Below are positions 104-1,526 of a DNA stretch of 31,035 bases, piece by piece; positions within the stretch are counted from its first letter, which is position 1; the number at the start of each line of letters is the position of its first letter. The stretch is from the UHGV virus genome UHGV-0099061, one strand, 5' to 3'. The translations under genes were made by a program, and so were the position numbers. The notes under the pieces are model-generated. The model did no database searches, had not been told where the DNA came from, and saw nothing but the letters and a program-made list of their open reading frames with translations. This DNA comes from a virus.

Positions 104-355
104 ATGAAAATAAGGGTAAGTTATTTCCGGGCGAAAGATAAGGCAACAGGAAAGCAGATTGCGATCCTGGTTAACGAGGCGCAGTACATGTTTGTCCTTC
201 AGCCGTGGTGTGTTGTAGATCTTAACGACAACTGTCGCCGCCACGCTGCGCGAAGTGCTGTTGGTATGAAAGGCTGGCAACCGCGCGACATGGAAAAATA
301 TTGTGAATGGAAATTGGTGGCAAAATACACGGTCGATTATAAAGGGGTTTTCTGA
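104..355 (+). CDS. hypothetical small protein (83 aa)
   Basis: Intact ORF; GAGGTAA Shine-Dalgarno ~6 nt upstream of ATG; stop overlaps next start (TGATG); no recognisable motif. Confidence 0.5.
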   Translation: MKIRVSYFRAKDKATGKQIAILVNEAQYMFVLQPWCVVDLNDNCRRHAARSAVGMKGWQPRDMEKYCEWKLVAKYTVDYKGVF

Positions 356-579
356 TGTTTGTAAAATGTATAAAGTCTCGTTTCCCTAATCTTTTTGTGG
401 TTGATGAGATTTACGACATAGAAACGCTAATAAGCAGAACTAACGATATTCAGTACATTTATGATGAAGATGGCGATCCGTGGTTTTTTTATAACGATCT
501 CAATGGTAGCGGATTCGTTGATGGCGTTGGCGGTAATGGTGTGCCAGTTGCGCTATTTATAAATGCAAATAAGGAATGA
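355..579 (+). CDS. small protein, tandem paralog family member (74 aa)
   Basis: ORF coupled to upstream stop; motif F-x-[DEG]-x-IY ... DEDGDPWFFY shared with neighbouring ORFs. Confidence 0.55.
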   Translation: MFVKCIKSRFPNLFVVDEIYDIETLISRTNDIQYIYDEDGDPWFFYNDLNGSGFVDGVGGNGVPVALFINANKE

Positions 580-584
580 ATATC

Positions 585-791
585 ATGTATGTTAGATGCA
601 CTGAATCAAAATCATCATGCTTTGAGGTTGGCGGAATATATACCGTAGCTCACCTGACTGGTGATGAACTTAACACCCAATACATTAAAGACGACCACGG
701 AGACGCGTGGCGCTATTGGGATTGTTACGCACGGGGACACGTTACCAGTCATTTCGGTATGGAAGCGATCGTGCGTTTTGTTAAATGGTAA
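585..791 (+). CDS. small protein, tandem paralog family member (68 aa)
   Basis: AAGGA SD ~9 nt upstream of ATG 585 (in-frame ATG at 576 also possible); motif GGIY ... DDHGDAWRYW. Confidence 0.55.
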   Translation: MYVRCTESKSSCFEVGGIYTVAHLTGDELNTQYIKDDHGDAWRYWDCYARGHVTSHFGMEAIVRFVKW

Positions 792-800
792 GGGGTAAGC

Positions 801-1058
801 ATGAAGCATTTATATTTTGAGGTATTGCAGACGCGAGACCGCAATATTTTTGAAGAAGGGAAGATCTATTGCGGCGTTCAACTCCACGGCGCACCGGGCG
901 GTGATGGTGCAATGGCGATAACTGGCGATGATGATAAGGTTTATTTCGCTTATGTTAGCCATATCAATAACGCCGCTGGTCTGTATATTTATCGCATAGT
1001 GCATGATTTCCGTGAGATCGCGGAGTTTTGCGCCCGCGAAGGCAGTAAACCGGAATAA
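801..1058 (+). CDS. small protein, tandem paralog family member (85 aa)
   Basis: AAGGGGTAAG SD; motif EGKIY ... GDDDKVYFAY. Confidence 0.55.
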   Translation: MKHLYFEVLQTRDRNIFEEGKIYCGVQLHGAPGGDGAMAITGDDDKVYFAYVSHINNAAGLYIYRIVHDFREIAEFCAREGSKPE

Positions 1059-1068
1059 GTGAGGGGTT

Positions 1069-1308
1069 ATGAACCGGAACCATAGATACCAGTGCACATA
1101 CTCACTATGCAGCGCGTTTTTTAAGAATGGCAAGATCTACGAAGTCGGCGCGGCATTGGTTGATGCAAAGGATCAGGAATATATTCACGCCATTACTGAC
1201 GACCAGGGCCGGTTATGGCGCTTTTATAAAATGGGGTACGGTACGGCGCTTGTTTATGCGCGTAATAGTAGTGGTGCTTTTGCTGCATTTTCATATGTCG
1301 GGGCGTAA
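1069..1308 (+). CDS. small protein, tandem paralog family member (79 aa)
   Basis: GAGGGG SD; motif NGKIY ... DDQGRLWRFY. Confidence 0.55.
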   Translation: MNRNHRYQCTYSLCSAFFKNGKIYEVGAALVDAKDQEYIHAITDDQGRLWRFYKMGYGTALVYARNSSGAFAAFSYVGA

Positions 1309-1310
1309 AA

Positions 1311-1526
1311 ATGATTTTAACGTGTCACGGATCTGATCTTGATTGTTTCGAAGACGGTTGTCAGTACGAAGCGGAAAAGCCAGGCGGATTACCGAAAAAA
1401 CCGTTTTTAGTCGTTACAGACACTTACGGTCACTTATGGTATGCAGCGCCCAGCAAGGCGCGTGGCTGGTGGCTGATTCAGAATGAAGATCGCGAGGTTG
1501 TAGTGGCCCTCAGGCAGGACGAATAA
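1311..1526 (+). CDS. small protein, probable divergent paralog family member (71 aa)
   Basis: ORF abutting previous stop; motif CFEDG..Y ... TDTYGHLWYAA; weak SD. Confidence 0.45.
   Translation: MILTCHGSDLDCFEDGCQYEAEKPGGLPKKPFLVVTDTYGHLWYAAPSKARGWWLIQNEDREVVVALRQDE

Follow-up and report, generated by a model that had tools for sequence, protein, structure and literature searches.

A variable tandem array of paralogous mini-proteins with a predicted SH3-like fold in an mEp021-like coliphage prophage

Two small coliphage proteins provide the closest described systems for the genes discussed here. The first, Gp54 of Escherichia phage Bas11 (PDB 9axb; Pfam PF25180, 'Phage antiviral trigger protein Gp54'), is non-essential and binds the antitoxin domain of CapRelSJ46 directly, with a Kd of 800 nM (PMC11578894). 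The authors of that study proposed that Gp54 may inhibit another defence system, and even close homologues of Gp54 fail to activate CapRelSJ46 (PMC11578894). The second, the stand-alone SH3 protein DUF7244 (Pfam PF23896), was placed in the SH3 clan in a 2026 paper, which reported it from 188 of 522 Drexlerviridae, in each case next to the lysis module (PMC13164509). Bas11 and Rtp each carry a 56-57 aa DUF7244 protein just 5' of the holin (the T1 gp14, rtp62 and bas11_0041 types). Here we describe a locus in UHGV virus genome UHGV-0099061 that can be compared with both. The 31,035 nucleotides analysed (the window) represent a prophage of the mEp021-like (mEpimmI) coliphage group that is interrupted by IS903 and in which five consecutive small genes at 355-1526 form a tandem array and a sixth relative lies in the tail module at 21312-21509. 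Together with their counterparts in related phages, these genes make up, on sequence comparison, a previously undescribed superfamily of mini-proteins in a common gut coliphage group, for which modelling predicts an SH3-like, Gp54-type fold.

The array genes and their family

All five open reading frames (ORFs) of the array lie on the plus strand, where they overlap by 1-4 nt, abut or stand 2-10 nt apart, and each is preceded by a purine-rich stretch that is likely to be its ribosome-binding site. They represent five subfamilies, named here by letter and start position: o355 (355-579; 74 aa, pI 4.2) belongs to A355, o576 (576-791; 71 aa) to B576, the divergent o801 (801-1058; 85 aa) to E801, o1069 (1069-1308; 79 aa, pI 9.0) to C1069, and o1311 (1311-1526; 71 aa), which is also divergent, to F1311. 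The initial annotation, made from the sequence alone, had described these ORFs as a tandem family of 74, 68, 85, 79 and 71 aa; the coordinates are as claimed and so are the lengths, except that the second ORF is 71 aa long and reaches 68 aa only from the internal Met at 585, which is the start used in database entries.

Plain BLASTP links o355, o576 and o1069, with E 5e-8 between the first two, 4.5e-5 between o1069 and o355, and 2e-4 between o1069 and o576, but does not join o801 or o1311 to any other member. Similarly, o355 (E 3.4e-9), o576 (E 1.8e-38) and o1069 (E 4.7e-5) fall into PHROG 31142, and o801 and o1311 have no PHROG match. Searches of Pfam, NCBIfam and PADLOC (the last with eight proteins, E<=1) gave no match for the family. 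An alignment-based database search recovered 90 proteins, every one of them from E. coli or one of its phages, which fall into eight subfamilies (A355, B576, C1069, D70, E801, F1311, G94 and H21312). An alignment of 40 sequences from all eight is collinear, with an invariant Phe and Tyr (F-x-x-G-x-x-Y), a D-D-x-G-x-x-[WY] hairpin and a near-invariant C-terminal Phe. The motif proposed in the initial annotation, an N-terminal Cys followed by these two elements, thus stands in its F-x-x-G-x-x-Y and DDxG parts; the Cys is found in all types except the 801 type, in which it is replaced by Val, and the Trp may be Tyr, as it is in o801.

Profile-profile comparison joins the divergent types to the rest. 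Subfamilies A, B, C and D match one another in hhalign at 86-96%, and the core matches G94 at 75%; E801 matches C1069 at 80% (E 1.4e-5), and F1311 matches B576 at 66% and the core at 52%. An empirical null was obtained by shuffling alignment columns, with 100-120 shuffles per comparison. The core profile scored z 4.2-9.5 against E801, F1311, G94 and H21312, and these scores were reached by 0-1 of the 100-120 shuffles: E801 (z 5.1) beat 119 of 120, whereas F1311 (z 7.1), G94 and H21312 each beat 120 of 120. Five unrelated neighbouring ORF families, used as a null control, gave z -1.9 to 0.6. Furthermore, when the 552 six-frame ORFs of the window were searched with hidden Markov models (HMMs) of o801, o1311, G94 and D70 (the last two being subfamilies that do not occur in this window), the best non-self match was in each case another array member, at E 3e-5 to 0.01; for the E801 HMM it was o1069 (E 0.008) and for the F1311 HMM o576 (E 0.005). 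BLASTP, profile-profile, shuffle and HMM tests therefore agree, and confirm that the five array ORFs constitute one divergent paralogous family whose shared motif is beyond chance. Identity between the paralogous proteins is only 15-35%, and we found no repeats between them at the DNA level.

Five of the six proteins (the array products and the 21312 product) are acidic or near-neutral, with pI 4.2-6.0, and five of the six have a GRAVY score below zero, that of o21312 being +0.06. On inspection, none of them shows a hydrophobic segment, signal peptide or lipobox. We also considered whether the N-terminal Cys might mark a phage lipoprotein, of the Cor type or another, and rejected this, as the Cys stands at residue 5-9 after polar or charged residues and has no hydrophobic stretch ahead of it.

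Nearest relatives and predicted fold

DUF7244 is the nearest sequence relative of the family. The two match in hhalign at 67% (E 5e-5) across 43 columns, and z is 9.7 for the whole-family profile and 6.5 for the core, scores that none of 120 shuffles reached. The two share the start M-K-V-K-C, then F/Y-x-E-G-x-x-Y and D-x-x-G in the same order and in proteins of the same size class, and both are found on the promoter-proximal side of the lysis genes. However, their C-terminal halves differ, and whereas DUF7244 is a single-copy gene directly beside the holin, the array comprises 0-5 tandem copies lying 2.3 kb upstream (from its end at 1526 to the holin start at 3863), with dispersed copies in addition. 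Neither the window proteins nor the 40 aligned members reached the DUF7244 gathering score of 27 bits, with P0120 (20.8 bits) and P0105 (15.4 bits), both remote relatives, the only ones to come near it. This supports remote homology rather than membership, and thus the placing of the array genes in a new, related family. PHROGs, in which o355, o576 and o1069 are held in PHROG 31142 and o21312 in PHROG 3249, neither of which carries a function, thus splits this one superfamily and has no family for its 801 and 1311 types.

Structure prediction, which the initial annotation had suggested, gave a confident single-domain AlphaFold2 model of o576 when based on the 40-sequence alignment (mean pLDDT 80.5, pTM 0.69). 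Strands 1 and 2 of the six strands in this model are joined by a loop of nine residues. The domain is thus predicted to be a six-stranded SH3-like small beta-barrel of the rare topology solved for Gp54 of Bas11, the predicted fold of o576 matching both the six-stranded barrel and the prominent strand 1-2 loop of that protein. In canonical SH3 domains a 3-10 helix is found where the model, like Gp54, has its sixth strand, and the Pfam SH3 families gave no match to family members. The Gp54 residues F21-x-x-G24 and G40-x-x-W43 line up by eye, without statistical support, with the two motifs of the family, and the Gp54 escape mutations G24D and W43* hit those same positions. In BFVD, many small uncharacterised proteins of enterobacterial phages resemble the model (TM 0.6-0.8), often several per genome. 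The genetic setting of Gp54 is different, since it is encoded by a single-copy gene of a virulent T1-like phage and the genes described here form a tandem array in a prophage.

The family profile also drew long database proteins (300-3,300 aa), each with as many as 25 matching stretches, which proved to be beta-propeller blades (Reg_prop, BNR, NHL) or designed 'Cake' propellers; they were rejected as homologues because the match is restricted to the DDxGxxW hairpin. This hairpin, common in propeller blades, is all that speaks for a chance pattern in place of a real family, an explanation that is largely refuted by the full-length match of the array members in the same order, the null scores of column shuffles and unrelated neighbours, the subfamily HMMs that independently find one another, and the confident single-domain model from the pooled alignment.

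Variation, dispersed members and genomic setting

A comparison of copy number across eight relatives showed that the slot of the array is constant and that its content is variable, from zero to five genes. The order A-B-E-C-F of the window recurs in strain 2017C-4173W12; MagusPhagus has G-D-E-C-F, Ecol_244 has B-D-E-C-F, GN05505 has A-B-C-F, O157 strain LSU61 has G-D-F and mEp010 has P0100-C-F, and in mEp021 the array is absent. The first two slots swap between A-B, G-D and B-D, and F1311 closes the array in every relative that bears one. The array genes are therefore dispensable. Differences between orthologues are mainly synonymous, with dN/dS of 0.11-0.18 (0.13 for E801, 0.18 for C1069 and 0.11-0.17 for F1311). 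Together with the lack of DNA repeats, these low values indicate that the genes are old paralogues under purifying selection, which are reshuffled or deleted by recombination, and not the product of ongoing duplication and diversification. The initial annotation had inferred a diversifying family arising by iterative duplication and selection; the family is indeed present in related genomes, but neither of those processes fits the dN/dS values or the 15-35% identity, and the differences between phages resemble cassette exchange and deletion.

The distribution of the family is narrow. The o576 type occurs in only three mEp phages among 50,697 phage records, and when 1.84 billion representative proteins were searched exhaustively with the family profile, about 30 short proteins came up in all. 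Several database entries (P0009, P0010, P0028, P0030 and P0069) are in-frame chimeras in which the N-terminal part of an array gene is joined to the C-terminal part of another gene of the same small-gene block (3404, 2662 or 2969 type), and these chimeras record deletions between neighbouring small genes. One database chimera, mEp013_60, has a C1069-type N-terminus fused to the tail of the 3404 protein. Other arrangements of the domain include P0098, with five tandem copies in one 438-aa protein; a 212-aa protein of T1-like phages (Eco_BIFF, pSf-2), with two copies and a C-terminal membrane anchor; and a single copy with a membrane anchor, the anchored relatives being P0105 and P0120.

The copy in the tail module at 21312-21509 (plus strand; 65 aa, pI 4.2; PHROG 3249, E 1.5e-22) is a divergent member that represents subfamily H21312. 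The initial annotation rightly listed it as a sixth member of the family: BLASTP to o576 is weak (E 0.002), and the hhalign value between the core and H rises from 14% to 43% (E 2.4e-4) once Rtp-type sequences are added to the H alignment, which then scores z 5.9 against the core, a value reached by 0 of 100 shuffles. Its start codon and the stop codon of tail gene M overlap (TAATG), and its neighbours are Phage_min_tail and Phage_tail_L genes. Directly after it, at 21514-21534 on the plus strand, lies a hairpin terminator (an eight-pair stem with six G-C pairs, then a T run), which is common to 21312 and to converging inserted genes on the minus strand, so that the order after 21312 is terminator, two minus-strand inserts, gene L. 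The gene occupies this gpM-gpL site in all seven sequenced mEpimmI phages, including mEp021, which has no array. Beyond this group, the sequences closest to its product (40-50% identity) come from virulent Rtp-like Drexlerviridae, where the homologous gene sits in a small-gene cluster between helicase/VRR-NUC genes and an exonuclease. The shared site and the Rtp-like kinship show that 21312 is a separate old lineage, an independently inserted accessory gene ('moron') and not a recent transfer from the array, and the earlier idea that one copy had been relocated into the tail module is not supported.

The ORF at 2969-3220 (plus strand; 83 aa, pI 4.1; PHROG 25234), which was not part of the initial annotation, is a probable sixth member of the array region: its N-terminal half reads C...F-T-I-G-C-E-Y...M-D-D-D-G-D before an acidic tail, and over 34 columns of this half it scores z 5.1 against the whole-family profile, with 0 of 120 shuffles reaching the score. 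The gene is found in seven of eight surveyed genomes, and in the chimeras P0069 and P0030 an array gene is joined to the C-terminal part of a 2969-type gene, the P0069 junction falling at the common DDxG motif. The initial annotation had also tentatively proposed a more distant member at 2101-2400. The ORF concerned (2071-2400, plus strand) shows just an 18-column local match to the core, scores at chance against the whole-family profile (z 0.5) and was not picked up by any family HMM, so we rejected it. In E. coli GN05505, an unannotated ORF between rusA and Q (L007, 1952-2203) matches the family profile at E 7.6e-5 and is a further dispersed member, in the region that corresponds to the lambda nin genes (the ninG/rusA side of Q). 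In the T1-like phages, Bas11 gene 61 (L010, 18370-18555) shows the pattern F-x-x-G-x-x-Y...D-x-D-G-D by eye, and rtp55 (L009, 3592-3792) was noted as another such small protein. This suggests that the Drexlerviridae too may carry several lineages of the scaffold per genome, and the BFVD matches hint likewise.

Between Q, the antiterminator gene, and the lysis genes lies a variable block of small genes that contains the array. In intact relatives the gap between Q and the holin measures 2-6.4 kb and is packed with 20-30 unannotated small genes; in the window, the upstream part of this block has been removed by the insertion sequence. Positions 1-55 (unstranded) are an IS903 end, with 98-100% identity to IS903 ends, which cuts the prophage just 5' of the array, and phage DNA starts again at about base 56, inside an mEp021_41-like gene. 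As the IS903 end abuts phage DNA within this gene, the prophage is interrupted and may be defective. In mEp021 the mEp021_41 product is annotated as a virion-associated protein, and its homologue in the window is broken at the junction, at about 55/56. From about base 56, the window is 84-93% identical to prophages in 35 of 5,426 complete E. coli genomes and to the temperate siphoviruses mEp021, mEp010, mEp013, mEp044, mEp515, mEp554 and MagusPhagus. The 'mEpimmI' group formed by these phages was described in 2025 in a paper that reports neither the mini-protein family nor a late promoter (PMC11893012).

The remaining genes of the window follow the order holin, lysozyme, Rz, terminase, portal, head, tail and a 1,656-aa J-like protein. 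The small-gene block is limited downstream by a conserved leader and intrinsic terminator (3785-3845, plus strand), with a hairpin at 3820-3838 and a T run, lying 25 bp before the holin (ATG at 3863). About 85 bp before the holin are nearly invariant in four phages, and the sequence just upstream varies; this stretch contains TAAAAT, the leader, the hairpin ACCCGGCCCCGCGCCGGGT and the T run, and 3785-3845 is a candidate Q-dependent late promoter with its leader and terminator. In relatives, a second hairpin terminator, AAGCGGGATAAAACCCGCTTTTTT, lies beyond the window, some 250 bp past Q (L003, 4390-4416). It is conserved across seven relatives, and in mEp010 its stem carries a compensatory change (GCGCG/CGCGC); it stands at the 5' end of an annotated coding sequence and is the alternative candidate for the terminator of the late operon. 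Neither candidate promoter is convincing as a means of placing the array in an early or a late operon.

Other genes of the region deserve brief mention. Pfam searches with the other small genes of the Q-holin block yielded nothing usable for functional context, and an Rfam scan of the window gave no match. Two adjacent mini-genes at 3404-3583 and 3580-3756 (59 and 58 aa) are paralogues of one another (hhalign 99.5%, BLASTP E 7e-5) and are unrelated to the array family. The tail module contains minus-strand genes at 17148-17807, 20364-20618, 21666-21914 and 21924-22373, which comprise a VasI-like gene (a type VI secretion family), a ParE-like toxin domain, a KilAC-like antirepressor fragment and a gene for a 149-aa protein. 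The last three of these inserts are bounded by hairpin terminators, at 20282-20304 and 21514-21534. Finally, the gene in the portal position (8616-10007, after the large terminase) bears the NCBI pipeline name 'anti-CBASS protein Acb1 family protein' in four relatives (L003, L005, L006 and L007) and is labelled portal in the mEp021 record; the Acb1 label reflects either a mis-naming or a genuine shared domain.

Possible functions and significance

What, then, might these proteins do? We propose that the locus comprises five ancient paralogues arranged as a cassette-like tandem array, with a further old lineage in the tail module, and that each gene encodes a cytoplasmic single-domain protein of 65-85 aa. 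The conserved Phe, Gly and Tyr, the DDxG hairpin, the Trp/Tyr and the C-terminal Phe would hold the barrel together, with the rest free to vary among paralogues. As the conserved residues are those that build the barrel, and the alignment contains no catalytic or metal-binding motif and no conserved polar constellation, the proteins are most likely non-enzymatic binding modules, in which each paralogue would offer its own surface to its own partner. The partners would most plausibly be host proteins, for example a defence sensor or another host factor, and the phage would keep a variable and dispensable panel that recombination reshuffles between phages. Host-directed binders are favoured because Gp54 binds a host immunity protein and because the array genes are dispensable, variable and situated in an accessory block. 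We are highly confident of the descriptive part of this explanation; protein binding and host targets are what we infer, and the explanation as a whole, an array of SH3-like, dispensable, non-enzymatic binders aimed at host proteins, is put forward tentatively, at somewhat less than the level of probable. The host-takeover or anti-defence role suggested in the initial annotation likewise stays a best guess, which has one lead, the fold match to the sensor-binding Gp54, and otherwise no anti-defence match in Pfam or NCBIfam. A bolder version, in which the array is a reshufflable repertoire of binders and each paralogue neutralises or decoys a different host immune sensor, such as the CapRel-type fused toxin-antitoxins, we regard as unlikely; if true, it would make Gp54 the first glimpsed member of a wider structural class that is detected by host immunity.

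Several observations weigh against host-directed binding. The link to Gp54 is structural only, since the profiles show no kinship in sequence (hhalign 0.2-0.4%, shuffle z 0.3-0.5). Membership of the Gp54 family by sequence was accordingly rejected: PF25180, with a gathering score of 27 bits and 116 bits for Gp54 itself, gave no match to window proteins at E<=1 or to the 40 aligned members at E<=10. The structure used as query is itself a prediction, made from an alignment in which all subfamilies are pooled; a Foldseek search of the PDB with it gave nothing significant, and 9axb was not among the 50 matches listed. The 21312 protein, when modelled on its own shallow alignment of 14 sequences, gave a poor model, with a pLDDT of 57.8 and only the four C-terminal strands. 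In addition, the array stands between two conserved terminators and could belong to an early operon or to a Q-dependent late operon. Finally, the nearest sequence relative, DUF7244, has been proposed, without experiments, to assist lysis rather than to counter defence (PMC13164509).

The last point leads to the main rival, that the array proteins are accessory lysis factors like DUF7244, which would bind components of the cell wall or of the lysis cassette and so tune lysis. The profile match to DUF7244, the constant position of DUF7244 genes beside the lysis module and the location of the array upstream of holin, lysozyme and Rz all agree with such a role. However, the lysis role of DUF7244 is itself a hypothesis (PMC13164509), and in the window at least nine unrelated ORFs and a terminator occupy the 2.3 kb between array and holin. 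Members of the family also occur far from lysis genes, in the tail module, in the rusA-Q interval of GN05505 and in the replication-side small-gene cluster of Rtp; no member has a signal sequence on inspection; and mEp021 lyses its host with no array copies at all. We therefore rate a lysis function as distinctly unlikely.

Lysogenic conversion, in which genes expressed from the prophage shield the host from other phages or alter its physiology, appears improbable. It would suit a family mostly limited to E. coli prophages and mEpimmI phages, the 'moron' layout of 21312 with its own terminator among ParE-like, KilAC-like and VasI-like inserts, and the C-terminal membrane anchor of some relatives (P0105, P0120). 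Yet no credible promoter precedes the array or 21312, the latter is translationally coupled to tail gene M, PADLOC gave no match, and H-type relatives are found in strictly virulent Rtp-like phages.

Binding of RNA or DNA is common among small SH3-like barrels, and the proteins might instead be small nucleic-acid-binding regulators (barrels of the Sm, KOW or cold-shock type) that act on phage or host transcripts. The region lies beside the antitermination gene Q, and in relatives another small gene of the block is named 'RNA-binding protein' by the NCBI pipeline. Against this, the low pI of five of the six proteins, the lack of a conserved basic patch in the alignment and the lack of any match to a Pfam nucleic-acid-binding domain make regulators of this kind more improbable still. 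We find it very hard to credit that the proteins, or at least the tail-module copy, serve in the virion or its assembly, for example as a tail assembly helper made with gpM. The overlap of 21312 with the gpM stop codon, conserved in position throughout the seven phages of the group, would fit such a helper, as would the database entries of some relatives, which read 'putative minor capsid protein'. The mEp021 orthologue, however, is 'hypothetical' and lies outside the 16 virion proteins identified by mass spectrometry, an argument that is weak, as small proteins are easily missed; the Rtp-like homologue is among replication-side small genes and not tail genes; and a terminator followed by minus-strand inserts, as seen after 21312, is the usual layout of an insertion.

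In summary, eight subfamilies of 'hypothetical' proteins, placed in two PHROGs or in none, can be joined into one superfamily, tied to DUF7244 by sequence and to Gp54, the sole member of the structural class with a known molecular partner, by predicted fold. Most recently found immune triggers and inhibitors come from small dispensable phage proteins, nearly all of which are unclassified, and here a common human-gut coliphage group carries the domain as a variable, multi-copy cassette. Should the proteins turn out to be lysis helpers, or to have no measurable effect, the finding would amount to a family annotation only. With about eight proteins of 70 aa and natural phages that carry from zero to five copies as a cheap, well-defined test set, the use of Gp54-like and DUF7244 proteins to the phage can now be approached, as can the question of whether phages employ this scaffold generally to engage host proteins.

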